From contig JAZDKJ010000012.1 of assembly GCA_043803105.1 (NCBI GenBank), forward strand, positions 32,001 through 96,000: 64,000 bases of DNA, given 5' to 3'. The DNA is from Candidatus Woesearchaeota archaeon (GTDB lineage: Archaea > Nanobdellota > Nanobdellia > Woesearchaeales > JAZDKJ01). Made by a program: the position numbers. This document shows, piece after piece, positions 27,001-30,000 of this stretch. Position 1 is the first letter of the stretch. Each line of letters opens with the position of its first letter.

Positions 27001-30000
27001 AAAGCCTATTTTCGCAACTTTATCACACCAACCAGGGACATTGTTTTCATTGTTGCCACTTACCTTACCAGTCTTTTGTTGCTTTTTGTCCAGGTTGTGG
27101 TTATACTGATAGTTGCTGCTTTCTTTTTCAAGTCGCAGCTCATTTCATCTTTGCCGAACACAATCCTCACCCTGTTCATAGCAGGGACCTTTTTCATTCT
27201 TGTTGGAATGGCTGTCGGTTACCTATTCAATTCTGAAGAGACATCAACCCTTGCTGCGATCTCCCTTGGCAGCGTTTTCCTTTTCCTTTCAAGTGTTATC
27301 CTGCCGCTCGAGAGCATGCCGCAGTATGTTATGCGGATTGCAGAATTTAACCCCTTCGTTGTCTCAGAGAATGCTCTGCGCCAGGCCTTGCTGTTCCAGT
27401 ATCCATTAAGGTTAATTGGTTACGAGCTTCTTCTGCTCTTGGGATACTCTGCTTTATTATTCGGGCTTACTCTGGTTATCCAAAAGGTTATGAAAAAACA
27501 TTTTGTCACCAAATACGCGCGGCGCTTTGCCCCCGTCAAGATGAAGAAAAAAGAATGATCTTGCCATGACTGTTATCCTGGTGTCCGGAACCCCTGGCAC
27601 TGGTAAGACAACTCTTGCGAAGCTCATCTCTGAACGCTTTGGCTATCACCTGTTGGATGTAAACAAGCTGATTAAGAGAAGGAATCTTGCAGAAGGTTAT
27701 GACAAGTTGCGTGATTCGTTAATTGTTGATGTGAACAAACTCTCAAAGGTTCTGGTGAAGATGATCTCACGTTCTCATGATGTTGTTGTTGATTCTCATC
27801 TTTCTCATTACCTTCCTCCATCCTGCGCTGATGCATGCCTTGTTACCAAATGCACTTTGAAGGAGCTTAAGCGAAGGTTAGAAGAACGATATAGTCAGGC
27901 AAAAGTGCGTGAAAATCTTGATGCAGAGGTCTTTGACATAATCAGAAACGAGGCGGTTGAGCTTGGTCACAGAGTCTACATTGTTAGGACAACGCACGGC
28001 ATCAATTTGAAAAGGGTTAAGTCCATTCTAAGCAAGGTGAGTCATGACAGACAAAACCATTCTTGATTATGCGAGAAAGGCAGCAGCCATTGGAGCTGCA
28101 AAGAGCGTGGTTAAGGCTCGCTTGCTGTCTGCTGGTTGGCCAGAGCAGGATGTTTCAAGAGCGATCTCTTCAGCGTATTCAAAAAAGCATAAGCTTATGT
28201 TGCCCTTGCTAATGCTCCTTTTGCTTTGCCTTGCTTTGGTTGTCTTGTTTTACAATACCCAGACCTCCGCTTCATCGATCATGCTAAATTTTCAGGTGCC
28301 AAAATCTGTCTACAAGGTTGGAGAACCTTTTTCCGGATCATTGAGCTTCCATCATTCCTTCTTAACCTTTAGGTCTGTGCTCTTGCTGTCTTACCAAGAG
28401 CAGGACTTCCCTTCAAACTCCACTCTAACGGCATCTGTTGTTGAACCCTTAAGCTTTCGCGACCAGTCGTTACCTCTTGCTGCGTTTTCCTTGCATGATA
28501 ATGCCTTGGAGTTCTCTGATTCATTTGCTAGGCGCGGGATGTATTCATTTTATGTCTCTGTTTTTTCGTGTGCGGTGCTGGAAAAGAAGCTGCATAAGTC
28601 ATGCAGTGAAATAACAAAGGAAGACATAAGCACGTTATTGCCGCTGCTCACTAGCATGGTAAAGGTTGTCGTTGTAAGTTAGAAGTAATGCGGGGAGTAG
28701 GATTTTCATGCTGACTTGCAATCTTGAACCCACGTAGGCACTAAGCCAATAGATGGCCCACAGAGCATTTCATCGGCGTTAGCCTCATCACTCGATGACT
28801 TGAGTTTGGATTTTTCGTACCCACATACCGAAAAACTATCCCGTTTGGCTTAGACCGACCAAGGTCGGTCTATTTGGCCACTCCGGCATCCCCGCAAACT
28901 TGAGTTTTGTGGGCCTTAGACAATGTCTGATTTGCCCGCAAATGCCCTTCAGATTTTATCTGGTGAGCACGCACAAAAAGAATGGTTGTATGTTTATAAA
29001 TCTTATTTAAGCCTCTCAAGTTTGCTCTCGAGTTCAAGCAGCTCTTGCTCTAGTTTGTCTATTGCTGAGCTGTTGTTCACGCTTTGCTTGACAGGTATTG
29101 TCCTGGCAACCTCGACCGGTTTTGGGAGTGATTTGAGGTTTGCTTTCGGGATTGCTGCCCTTAGTCTTGTGTTGAGCATGTTAATCTCTTCAAATAGCCT
29201 TTTCAGTTTGGCAACAAGCTCTCCCTTTTCTGCCCGCCTTGACTTGTTTGTTTCGTACAGTCGCAGGTTGTGTATTATGTCTTTTGAGCAGCCAAGTATG
29301 GATCGTCTCATCTGGACAGGCTCTTGAATTCCCACAAAGAATATCTCTTTTTGCTCGTTCATCTTCAGAATGGCTCGGTCTCAAAAAGTGTCTTGTCTAT
29401 ATAGCTGATCTTTCTCTCGATTTCGTCAAGCTGTGTTTTCCATTGCTCAAGGGTGGCGTCCTCTTCATTCTTTATCTCGCTCAATCTGCCCATGACAGAT
29501 CTGGTCTCTGCAATCTTCGTCTTTAGAAGGCCCATAAGATCAAGTATGTCTTTGTATTCATCTATCCTAACAAAGATTGGCATTTCTTTTCTTGTCTCCA
29601 TCATGCACCCCTAGCTTGACACGATCCTGTCCACGTACATGAGCTTTCGCTGCATGTCCTCGAGCTCAAGCCTCCATTTCTCGAATTCCTTGTCCTCCTC
29701 GTTCTTGAGTTCATTCATCCTGACTACTATATCGCTTGCCTCTTTCAGGTTGTTTCTGATTTCGGCTGCTCCATCGATTATTTCCCTATAATCATCCACC
29801 CTCACGAAAAGTGGTTTTTGCATCCCGATTGCCTTGAGTATCCTTTCCCTTGAGATTTCTGGTTGTGCTGCCTCTGTCACCCTCGGTTTTATTAGGTGTT
29901 CTATAGGTATCTCGATTTTCTCTGGTTGCATCAAAACTTCTGGTTTTGGTGAGAATGCCTCTGGCTGTGGTATGGGTAATGGTTCATGCCTTTGTGTCTC

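Follow-up and report, generated by a model that had tools for sequence, protein, structure and literature searches.

The question raised by this locus is whether a short gap between 2 open reading frames (ORFs) holds a complete tRNA gene that is interrupted so often that standard searches do not recognize it. The window, that is, the whole stretch of DNA analysed, comprises 64,000 nucleotides of contig JAZDKJ010000012.1 from a Candidatus Woesearchaeota archaeon (positions 32,001 to 96,000). The gap is 240 nt long and lies between ORFs at 28044-28682 and 28923-29327, both on the plus strand. ARAGORN called no tRNA in the window, and Rfam gave no tRNA in the window at the gathering score and none at E<=10 within 28600-29000; the sole Rfam match at E<=10 at the locus was SorY, a chance match. 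The initial annotation had nevertheless placed a tRNA-Leu(CAA) gene with 4 introns, in the D-loop and at 30/31, 37/38, and 59/60, at 28689-28895. Our comparison of sequences confirmed this gene and its coordinates, and located it on the minus strand, which the annotation had not stated. The parts of the gene, in order of transcription, are as follows.

28689-28895, minus strand: whole tRNA-Leu(CAA) gene, 207 nt; the 3' end is the discriminator A and CCA is not encoded
28874-28895, minus strand: exon 1, 22 nt; 5' strand of the acceptor stem, positions 8-9, 5' strand of the D stem, and most of the D loop; conserved in orthologues
28845-28873, minus strand: intron 1, 29 nt; 3' side of the D loop, HBh' type
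28836-28844, minus strand: exon 2, 9 nt (8 nt with the cut 1 base later); end of the D loop, 3' strand of the D stem, position 26, and positions 27-30
28806-28835, minus strand: intron 2, 30 nt; site 30/31, HBh' type
28799-28805, minus strand: exon 3, 7 nt (ACUCAAG); positions 31-37, that is, the last stem base and 6/7 of the anticodon-loop bases, with the anticodon CAA
28755-28798, minus strand: intron 3, 44 nt; canonical site 37/38, hBH type
28763-28793, minus strand: K-turn or box D'-C'-like module within intron 3; GAGU, xAUGA, short hairpin, GAUGAA, GCUC
28723-28754, minus strand: exon 4, 32 nt; position 38, 3' strand of the anticodon stem, long variable arm, 5' strand of the T stem, and T loop 54-59
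28703-28722, minus strand: intron 4, 20 nt; site 59/60 in the T loop, hBH type
28689-28702, minus strand: exon 5, 14 nt; position 60, 3' strand of the T stem, 3' strand of the acceptor stem, and A73

Removal of the 4 introns left a product of 84 nt, the mature length that had been proposed, which ARAGORN called as tRNA-Leu(caa). When all 16 subsets of the 4 introns were run, an intron-free call was obtained only when all 4 had been removed, and the same 4 sites were recovered by our own constrained search. The spliced product agreed with the intron-less parts of orthologues and had the features of a class II tRNA-Leu, namely a long variable arm (variable region of 15 nt), a 3-bp D stem, A73, and a Leu anticodon. 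As had been claimed, the anticodon stem was paired at 5 of 5 positions after splicing, both in tRNA-Leu(CAA) and in tRNA-Leu(TAG) (C8:41137-41278), for which the same pair of introns at 30/31 and 37/38 was the only solution of the search. No group I or group II ribozyme core was matched by Rfam in the window or at E<=10 at the locus, and the introns are only 20 to 44 nt long.

Each of the 4 introns showed the geometry of a BHB motif, with an H helix and at least 1 flanking helix, and their removal left a canonical tRNA. The H helix of the D-loop intron was paired at 3 of 4 positions (GGCC/AGCC) and was followed by an inner helix of 9 to 10 bp, without an outer helix, whereas that of the 30/31 intron was fully paired (GGAU/AUCC, 4/4) with an inner helix of 6 bp; this pairing and the GGAC/GUCA helix (3/4) that had also been quoted for 30/31 introns both held. 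The 37/38 intron had a relaxed motif, with an enlarged 5' loop instead of a clean 3-nt bulge, an H helix paired at 4 of 4 positions including 1 G-U (CUCA/UGGG), and as its outer helix the 5-bp anticodon stem, which cannot form in full until the 30/31 intron has been removed. In the 59/60 intron the H helix was UUCA/UGAA (4/4) and the outer helix was the 5-bp T stem.

The very short exons are composed almost entirely of splice motif. Exon 3, which is indeed essentially the anticodon loop, consists of 1 bulge base of the upstream intron together with the H strand (4 nt) and 2 bulge bases of the intron downstream. Exon 2 consists of 1 bulge nucleotide of intron 1, 2 further nucleotides, the 4-nt H strand of intron 2, and 2 bulge nucleotides; it had been described as 8 nt long but is 9 nt under the BHB rule. 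The junction of the D-loop intron is not fixed by the DNA alone, because 6 bases are repeated at both junctions. The scorer favored a 31-nt D-loop cut with an 82-nt product, but the 84-nt form was adopted, as its D loop is the one present in orthologues without the intron. An even shorter exon, the 6-nt UUCAAA of the T loop between introns at 53/54 and 59/60, had been proposed for 2 tRNA-Ser genes and was recovered in both, as the only solution in Ser(GGA) (C7:30536-30757) and as the best of 84 in Ser(TGA) (C8:105988-106204). Here the 2 motifs overlap by 1 base, so that both BHBs cannot coexist and must act in succession. It was also noted that the long 53/54 introns of both Ser genes open with a palindromic hairpin that includes 6 consecutive T, and that similar copies of this hairpin occur at 20 further BLAST matches, many of which lie in or adjoin other tRNA genes.

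Loose BHB rules might carve a cloverleaf out of almost any 200 nt, and the model could then be an over-fitted product of chance. Pairs resembling a BHB were in fact very common, with 2,724 in 226 nt that had an H helix of at least 3/4, of which 406 also had a flanking helix; since they abound to this extent, a lone BHB-like motif is weak evidence. A first, loose search gave 1,614 solutions at the locus, and spurious models with 4 or 5 "introns" arose elsewhere in the genome. The four-intron model ranked top in the loose search, however, and was the single solution of a strict constrained search; with the rule for the inner helix loosened, 2 solutions were obtained, both with 4 introns, and none of 400 dinucleotide shuffles in which the gene ends were kept yielded any model. 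In a genome-wide scan, 12,715 acceptor-pair candidates were reduced to 165 survivors of the T-arm filter and 66 models, among which tRNA-Leu(CAA) scored 26.6, compared with at most 22.9 for models outside recognizable tRNA loci. Applied to 42 orthologues, the automatic search chose a model with 1 long intron and a different anticodon in 2 of them (L058 and L108). Given these controls, and the orthologues described below, which lack single introns at the same junctions and in which the helices covary, we consider a chance origin of the model exceedingly unlikely.

The strongest support for the four-intron model comes from the comparative data. The 59/60 intron, exactly the 20 nt and nothing else, was absent in orthologue L003 of a genome from the same genus (G001). 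The D-loop intron was absent at the predicted junction in L004, L006-L010, and most of the matches to a search pattern (dD=15), and the 30/31 intron was absent in L011, L013-L018, and L020, in which positions 27-37 were contiguous. The 37/38 intron was present in all Leu(CAA) orthologues examined. The 7-nt exon 3 was identified in all 9 orthologues found by BLAST (L002-L010), for which the exon was not a search requirement, and a pattern with both anticodon-arm introns (30/31 and 37/38, separated by the 7-nt exon) matched 111 further species genomes. Among the 80 pattern matches whose titles were listed, all were metagenome-assembled genomes named as Woesearchaeota, Nanoarchaeota/Nanoarchaeia, "archaeon" or "uncultured Methanosarcinales". 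Exon conservation among the 111 matches is by construction, because the pattern demands 3 exon pieces; the helices and the 9 orthologues found by BLAST alone escape this selection. Four introns were also reached in other lineages, and 5 in L095. The distribution suggests that the 37/38 intron dates far back within the order and that the 30/31 intron is common to a large subgroup, with the D-loop and 59/60 introns as apparently younger, lineage-specific gains.

Pairing within the introns was counted with our own junction-anchored script in 112 unique orthologous genes, some of them from related genomes that are not independent samples. The H helix of the 30/31 intron was paired in 446 of 448 cells, as compared with 50 to 269 of 448 when the partner was shifted, and its inner helix was paired in 87 to 109 of the 112 genes per position with many pair types. 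Position 28 covaried with its intron partner (U-A in 62 genes, C-G in 28, U-G in 20, and C-A in 2), and the mature 28:42 pair was U-A in 82 and C-G in 30 genes. For the H helix of the 37/38 intron, 112, 109, 102, and 101 of the 112 genes were paired at the 4 positions, for a total of 424 of 448. The reservation of the initial annotation, that its models were hand-made and some motifs relaxed, is largely removed by this covariation and by the orthologues without single introns at the predicted junctions.

The same data bear on whether the gene is a decaying, disused copy that collects insertions. It would be dispensable because tRNA-Leu(UAA) could read UUG; a tRNA-Leu(TAA) gene exists in the genome (C6:521331-521612), and the number of insertions is extreme. 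Yet all stems are intact, all 4 insertions keep the splice geometry, and the architecture is retained in the 111 further species genomes, where compensatory substitutions preserve pairing in the pre-tRNA helices as well as at 28:42 of the mature tRNA. The genome scan gave no second Leu(CAA) gene. Decay is therefore very unlikely, and it is highly probable that the locus encodes a working tRNA-Leu(CAA) of a Woesearchaeota-type DPANN archaeon, with 4 BHB introns that would be cut by a single EndA and joined by RtcB.

The host encodes both a splicing endonuclease and the RtcB ligase (C6), as well as L7Ae (C7:23178-23456), Nop5, and fibrillarin (C12:149649-150916). The single EndA gene (C4:37117-37725) codes for 203 amino acids with PF02778 and PF01974, is the only EndA of the genome and of the alpha-type, and has 3iey_A (8e-40) and 1a79_A as its best solved relatives. 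A lone alpha-type EndA acting on relaxed motifs would count against the model, since alpha4 enzymes are, as a rule, confined to strict motifs; loop-bearing alpha4 enzymes have been described in DPANN lineages in which many tRNA genes are disrupted (Kaneta et al. 2018). The rtcB gene is itself interrupted by a 30-nt BHB intron (C6:11275-11304). Two screens for further mRNA introns of this kind were unspecific, with 2,252 raw matches and 693 frame-joining candidates, and a second "TAG inside" candidate (L30e-like, C6:363537-363806) turned out to be the end of an intact ORF.

Transcription probably yields a single 207-nt precursor; a search for sequencing runs of any kind covering 24000-33999 listed none. 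The predicted fold of the precursor has a free energy of -76.6 kcal/mol (z = -3.65). The minimum free energy structure contains the acceptor stem, the hairpin of the D-loop intron, and the T stem with the H and inner helices of the 59/60 intron; the 30/31 BHB is not present in it. Alternatively, some introns could hold a terminator and a promoter, and pieces made separately would then be joined in trans, as in Nanoarchaeum equitans. Oligo-T is a terminator in archaea; intron 2 begins with 5 T, and the hairpins with 6 T in the Ser introns, with their further copies, would fit the same scheme. The T run of intron 2 is not conserved in orthologues, though, and introns of 20 to 44 nt are too short for a promoter and a leader. 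The split and permuted tRNA genes of N. equitans, which is also a DPANN archaeon, and Caldivirga depend on the same BHB, EndA, and RtcB machinery; unlike in those genes, the 5 pieces here are collinear on one strand within a single 207-nt locus, and an exon of 6 to 7 nt cannot be a transcription unit. We regard separate transcripts as highly unlikely.

With a single precursor, the D-loop and 30/31 introns, each of which has its own strong hairpin, could be cut in the raw transcript. The 37/38 intron needs the anticodon stem as its outer helix, so its excision should follow the ligation of exon 2 to exon 3. In that order the 7-nt exon would remain attached to the precursor, whereas cutting both neighboring introns at once would release it.

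The 37/38 intron carries a further conserved element. A K-turn signature (C stem, 3-nt bulge, tandem G.A/A.G, and NC stem) was present in 90 of 112 orthologous introns but in only 58 of 2,240 shuffles. The C stem covaried, its third pair being C-G in 43 and U-A in 37 orthologous introns, and the relatives L013, L015, and L018 had the canonical CUGA at the same place, while GUGAUGA was the 5' element in G000. The register faces C34. Of 87 introns, 72 have G as the fifth base from the box and 56 have complete guide-like pairing to positions 31-36 (6/6 pairs), although this duplex amounts to no more than about 6 bp and its intron strand also pairs within the intron itself. The tRNA-Trp gene of the same genome has a box C/D-like 37/38 intron in which a complement of the anticodon loop places C34 5 bases from the box. 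A box C/D guide with C34 at this distance is reportedly located inside the 37/38 intron of archaeal pre-tRNA-Trp, an observation attributed to Clouet d'Orval and colleagues in 2001. Like that intron, the Leu intron combines K-turn elements with a stretch complementary to the anticodon loop. In contrast to it, the 41- to 58-nt Leu introns have room for a single module (D'-like and C'-like); no terminal C/D pair was found, and no second K-turn was seen by eye, although no formal search for one was made. The duplex of about 6 bp would form in cis, with guide and target only a few bases apart. L7Ae is predicted to bind the K-turn of intron 3, which may either aid folding or, as a box C'/D' guide carried by the intron, direct 2'-O-methylation of C34. 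In Pyrococcus furiosus, C34 of tRNA-Leu(CAA) has been predicted as a C/D target (PMC7668247).

Taken together, these features allow a joint reading that we offer as tentative and rather doubtful. BHB splicing in Woesearchaeota would have been driven to its geometric minimum with a function built in, so that exons of 6 to 7 nt, the footprint of 2 abutting splice motifs, were long kept and made the order of cuts obligatory. The K-turn intron might recruit L7Ae, and perhaps Nop5-fibrillarin, so that the anticodon micro-exon is held in place and C34 is methylated in cis ahead of the final excision. The lone alpha-type EndA would act on relaxed motifs, contrary to the strict-motif rule for alpha4 enzymes, and the ligase would need the pathway for its own mRNA.

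Introns at canonical and noncanonical sites of the same tRNA gene are known from other lineages. In papers up to 2021, the maximum was 3 introns per tRNA gene and the richest genome had 71 introns in 46 genes (PMC8450103, PMC4390854). In the Thermoproteales, multi-intron tRNA genes, for example Pyrobaculum calidifontis tRNA-Glu(UUC) and P. islandicum tRNA-Pro(UGG), resemble tRNA-Leu(CAA) in that their BHB introns occupy sites that include those of the 30/31 and 59/60 types, and some introns are so close that one must leave before the next motif forms (PMC8450103, PMC4390854). By contrast, the genes described here reach 4 introns (5 in L095) and have exons of 6 to 9 nt, and their host is a DPANN archaeon in which one alpha-type EndA gene takes the place of the crenarchaeal alpha-beta pair. 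An Asgard preprint of October 2026 reports, in the passages available, that almost every tRNA gene is interrupted, with 2.2 intervening sequences per gene, at most 5 in one gene, and BHB motifs at their sites, and that standard annotators miss many of them, above all in the D arm. It concerns another lineage and is a census of genes without RNA data, and those passages hold nothing on exons of 6 to 7 nt, an order-wide intron pair, or an intron K-turn. Because the Asgard genes reach 5 introns, tRNA-Leu(CAA) is best described as a new variant in a new lineage. In the nuclear genome of the red alga Cyanidioschyzon merolae, a eukaryote, tRNA genes have at most 3 BHB introns, located in the D arm, the T loop, and at 37/38; RT-PCR showed that they are removed in order, with the outer introns leaving before 37/38, and no micro-exons were reported (PMC3728597). 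Splicing was observed there on RNA, whereas here it is predicted from the gene sequence. A literature search for DPANN tRNA genes with at least 4 introns or micro-exons gave no description, and the supplements of 3 studies may hold such cases (Woesearchaeota tRNA tables of PMC5829648, Table S7 of PMC8450103, and the Asgard preprint).

A gene in 5 pieces with a 7-nt exon puts ordinary archaeal tRNA splicing near its geometric limit. Such genes are natural test substrates for the minimum exon accepted by EndA and RtcB, for the need for ordered cuts, and for the action of an alpha4-type EndA on relaxed motifs, and the order-wide intron pair with its clean presence and absence states lends itself well to the dating of intron gains. 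They would also explain the incomplete tRNA sets that finders report in Nanobdellota and other DPANN archaea, for which a 2026 preprint gives 26 to 54 tRNAs per complete genome and leaves the absent ones unexplained. Counts of tRNAs, completeness estimates, and claims of missing tRNAs in these lineages need intron-aware models, and manual curation of such tRNAs has been called for (Kaneta et al. 2018).

The present genome illustrates the problem, in that only 6 tRNAs matched at the Rfam cut-off although the genome is 96.5% complete. The 2 Ser genes with double T-loop introns were missed by our own scan because its T-arm filter reached only 32 nt upstream, and 5 tRNAs found by ARAGORN were missed because of hard rules (U8, C61, A14, GG in the D loop, and TTCRA). 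BLAST with 38 tRNAs of a relative (G026) gave few extra loci, the re-modelling of 14 loci gave nothing new, and no CAU model was obtained at an initiator-like locus (C10:102264-102444) when up to 5 introns and exons down to 6 nt were allowed. The complete Leu set that had been listed (GAG, CAG, TAA, TAG, and CAA) was recovered in the genome scan. Automated models, which were taken as such for all genes other than the 4 of the initial annotation, together with ARAGORN gave at least 34 tRNA genes with at least 58 introns, a census that is a lower bound because of the filter reach and the hard rules.

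Neither ARAGORN nor Rfam reported a tRNA at positions 28689-28895 of the window, where the initial annotation had placed a tRNA-Leu(CAA) gene with four introns, here called introns 1 to 4, in the D-loop and at positions 30/31, 37/38 and 59/60. The locus occupies a 240-nt gap with a plus-strand ORF on either side. On its minus strand, an acceptor strand of 7 nt opens the locus, and the complement of that strand plus an A closes it. When segments 28845-28873, 28806-28835, 28755-28798 and 28703-28722 were cut out, ARAGORN called the remaining 84 nt, which include a long variable arm, as tRNA-Leu(caa). 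Among the 16 subsets of the four segments, an intron-free call was obtained for full removal only, while retention of the 37/38 segment yielded Leu(caa) with a canonical intron. The annotated 7-nt exon, which covers positions 31-37, was recovered as such, and the second exon was 9 nt long rather than 8 nt. The window also contained archaeal RNase P RNA (37545-37885) and archaeal SRP RNA (53930-54203) according to Rfam, and is thus of archaeal origin.

Features of the tRNA-Leu(CAA) gene and of the rtcB gene (C6, a contig of the same genome)
Window 28689-28895, minus strand: tRNA-Leu(CAA) gene, exons of 22, 9, 7, 32 and 14 nt
Window 28763-28793, minus strand: K-turn or box D'-C'-like module in the 37/38 intron, conserved across the order and also in relatives' loci L011-L020
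C6:11275-11304 (L133:2721-2750 in the extracted locus), minus strand: 30-nt clean bulge-helix-bulge (BHB) element in rtcB with a 4/4 central helix (AAGG/CCUU), a 9-bp inner helix and bulges of 3 nt

The D-loop intron cannot be placed to the base from the DNA alone, since both junctions carry the same six bases, a consequence of the palindromic exon strand of the central helix. Our scorer favored a cut of 31 nt (product of 82 nt) over 29 nt (84 nt), but the latter was retained because it yields the D loop seen in the intron-less orthologs, in agreement with the mature length first proposed.

A single BHB-like motif is cheap evidence: 226 nt contained 2724 pairs with a central helix of 3/4 or 4/4, 406 of which also had a flanking helix. 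Because such motifs are abundant, we wrote a search that walks along the DNA, may skip up to 5 BHB-compatible segments, requires exons of at least 6 nt and must close a full cloverleaf. At the tRNA-Leu(CAA) locus, the four-intron model ranked best of 1614 solutions in a loose search and was the sole solution in a strict one; loosening the inner-helix rule gave 2 solutions with identical introns. When the gene interior was shuffled 400 times with dinucleotides preserved and the gene ends held fixed, not one shuffle yielded a model. A scan of the whole genome reduced 12715 acceptor-pair candidates to 165 T-arm survivors and 66 models; tRNA-Leu(CAA) scored 26.6, compared to 26.2-29.5 for other tRNA genes and at most 22.9 away from recognizable tRNA loci.

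Orthologs were identified by BLAST searches of 60 genomes, one per family of the same order. The ortholog in G001, a member of the same genus, contained introns 1 to 3 and lacked exactly the 20 nt of intron 4. Both the D-loop and T-loop introns were absent from L004 and L006-L010, in which the two anticodon-arm introns flanked the same 7-nt exon. In 8 other relatives (L011, L013-L018 and L020), positions 27-37 were contiguous, and the 37/38 intron was the only one in the anticodon arm. Intron-less alleles with the predicted junction are thus known for 3 of the 4 introns; the remaining one, at the canonical 37/38 site, was found in all orthologs.

An exact pattern built from the end of exon 2, the 7-nt exon and the start of exon 4, separated by two gaps, matched 111 species genomes, and all 80 titles among the matches listed were Candidatus Woesearchaeota, Nanoarchaeota/Nanoarchaeia, "archaeon" or "uncultured Methanosarcinales" MAGs. 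Together with 10 loci found by BLAST, this gave 121 loci, of which 112 were unique. Since the set was selected by exon pieces, only the intron helices serve as evidence here. The central helix at 30/31 was paired in 446 of 448 cells, as compared to 50-269 when the partner was shifted by 1-2 positions, and the inner helix was paired in 87-109 of the 112 genes per position, with many pair types. Position 28 and its intron partner formed U-A in 62, C-G in 28, U-G in 20 and C-A in 2 genes, and position 28 also covaried with position 42 of the mature stem (U-A 82, C-G 30). In the 37/38 central helix, 112, 109, 102 and 101 of the 112 genes were paired, position by position.

The two anticodon-arm introns were the only introns in 75 of the 121 loci, 42 contained more, and the gene ends were missed in 4. 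The 42 comprised 31 loci with three introns, 5 modeled with four (L001, L034, L107, L005 and L083, the last two identical in sequence), 2 that were mis-modeled and 4 without a model. Re-modeling gave four introns in L114 and five in L095:3572-3801 (plus strand; 38, 22, 30, 45 and 13 nt), the latter with two D-loop introns around a 6-7-nt exon, and ARAGORN called both spliced products as Leu(caa). Judged by eye, L122 and L042 also appear to have four.

From these structures we infer a splicing mechanism and an order of cuts. Introns 1 and 2 are of the HBh' type, with the helix on the intron side, and would be self-sufficient, while the T stem would serve as the outer helix for intron 4. Intron 3, whose 5' loop is enlarged, would depend on the anticodon stem, which is complete only once exons 2 and 3 are joined, so intron 2 should leave before intron 3. 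This order would also guard against losing the 7-mer, which amounts to 1 + 4 + 2 nt of splice motif.

The genome encodes one EndA of 203 amino acids, with an N-terminal and a catalytic domain. Among solved structures it matches the N. equitans alpha subunit and the M. jannaschii homotetramer best, and searches of the genome with the Pfam model and with the EndA protein itself revealed no second copy. Also present are RtcB, L7Ae, and adjoining genes for fibrillarin and Nop5. The rtcB reading frame contains an in-frame TAG, and alignment to P. horikoshii RtcB (1uc2_A) shows an insert of exactly 10 residues that separates HEG from GFPIGG. Removal of the 30-nt BHB element restores the conserved HEGYGFPIGG motif. 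If this element is an intron, the RtcB ligase would need splicing of its own mRNA. Among the 61 genomes searched, only this one had a stop inside the RtcB match. In the relatives G012, G016, G055 and G001, the RtcB open frames were 818-1013 amino acids long and the Pfam match was interrupted around profile position 49-50, which looks like inteins at a site other than that of the 30-nt element.

The 37/38 intron of tRNA-Leu(CAA) contains a conserved module of GAGU, a 4-nt xUGA box, a short hairpin, GAUGAA and a strand that pairs back to GAGU. The sequence definition of a K-turn fitted 90 of 112 introns versus 58 of 2240 shuffles, and L7Ae is a likely binding partner. The module was also seen in relatives that lack the 30/31 intron, and in some of these the box is a canonical CUGA. 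Upstream of the box, the bases are complementary to positions 31-36, with the fifth base opposite C34 and a G in 72 of 87 cases. C34 of tRNA-Leu(CAA) is a predicted C/D target in P. furiosus, according to a paper on archaeal tRNA modifications (PMC7668247), and the tRNA-Trp gene (C10:102920-103095) has a similar intron module with the fifth base opposite C34. The intron may act as a guide, a function we rate as possible rather than likely because the duplex is short and a single K-turn is present.

Tiny exons had also been proposed for three other genes. For tRNA-Leu(TAG) (C8:41137-41279), the search returned a single solution, with the same pair of introns at 30/31 (28 nt) and 37/38 (31 nt); in relatives' loci L018 and L019, the Leu(TAG) anticodon arm was contiguous at 27-37. 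The 6-nt T-loop exon was likewise reproduced in tRNA-Ser(GGA), where the only solution had introns of 12, 96 and 30 nt at 37/38, 53/54 and 59/60, and in tRNA-Ser(TGA), where the proposed model with introns of 99 and 34 nt was the best of 84. Base 54 of this exon is common to both splice motifs, so the two cuts would have to be sequential. Many Ser genes of relatives were uninterrupted with a contiguous T arm, while L138, L151 and L153 (same genus) had the 59/60 intron alone and L148 and L152 the 53/54 intron alone, so that the 6-nt exon represents a combination of two separately occurring sites. For the Ser(GGA) genes of the relatives G036 (L160) and G027 (L161), the models place introns behind mature positions 30 and 38, so that the anticodon loop lies on an exon of 8 nt; by these models, micro-exons are not confined to Leu genes. 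The first ~35 nt of the long 53/54 introns (C7:30612-30646 and C8:106052-106086) form a palindromic hairpin with six T opposite six A. It had 20 further BLAST matches and recurs within or beside many other tRNA genes. Possible identities are the core of a mobile intron and, within the "introns", an element resembling a terminator.

Examples of further copies of the hairpin
C6:187267-187299
C6:403730-403764
C8:113591-113625
C8:132807-132839
C12:181545-181576

The tRNAscan-SE 2.0 paper gives at most three introns per archaeal tRNA gene and 71 introns in 46 genes for the richest genome (PMC8450103), and a review from 2015 sets the same limit of three (PMC4390854), whereas tRNA-Leu(CAA) has four; a report on C. 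merolae likewise mentions up to three (PMC3728597). Kaneta et al. 2018 drew attention to unidentified disrupted tRNA genes in DPANN, and a preprint of May 2026 that covers 208 Nanobdellota genomes left missing tRNAs unexplained, with a single occurrence of the word "intron". More than three introns are no longer unheard of, since an October 2026 preprint on Asgard archaea describes tRNA genes with 2.2 intervening sequences each and a maximum of five, compared to four in this genome and five in L095. Our literature search, which covered papers without their supplements, retrieved no report of such genes in a DPANN lineage, of 6-7-nt exons, of an order-wide conserved pair or of a K-turn intron.

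Only 6 tRNA matches reached the Rfam cut-off in this genome, which is 96.5% complete, and ARAGORN reported 9. The number of matches at E<=0.001 varies widely among relatives, with 5 in G001, 14 in G017, 25 in G010, 31 in G029 and 38 in G026. The automatic models comprised 52 introns in 27 tRNA genes. Adding 5 introns from the two Ser genes and 1 from five genes detected by ARAGORN only brings the minimum to 34 genes and 58 introns, a census of individually unvetted models that still lacks about a dozen of the expected genes. Four introns were seen in tRNA-Leu(CAA) only, among the resolved genes. No ordinary tRNA-Phe has been found in the genome scan so far.

Other tRNA loci
Window 42507-42684, plus strand: His(GTG), introns of 14 and 91 nt (automatic model)
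Window 45068-45165, plus strand: Leu(GAG), one 14-nt intron (automatic model), mis-called Phe(gaa) by ARAGORN
C6:304225-304323, plus strand: class II Ser-like tRNA with anticodon GAA, 15-nt T-loop intron, long variable arm, G73 and Ser-type D arm
C6:303770-303841, C12:123849-123921, C6:525422-525513 and C6:33535-33644: Ala(CGC) and Thr-type genes, D loop without GG, T loop UGCGACU or UGCAACU instead of UUCRANN
C10:102264-102444, minus strand: 181 nt, initiator-type acceptor stem, CUCAUAA mid-locus
C10:3423-3643, plus strand: one Ile(GAU)-like 5' part and two copies of the same 3' end

At C10:102264-102444, no CAU model emerged when up to 5 introns and exons no shorter than 6 nt were allowed; judged by eye, the locus may call for four introns and an exon of 5 nt. 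The duplicated 3' end at C10:3423-3643 consists of the 3' strand of the T stem and the acceptor, and the two copies are ~110 nt apart.
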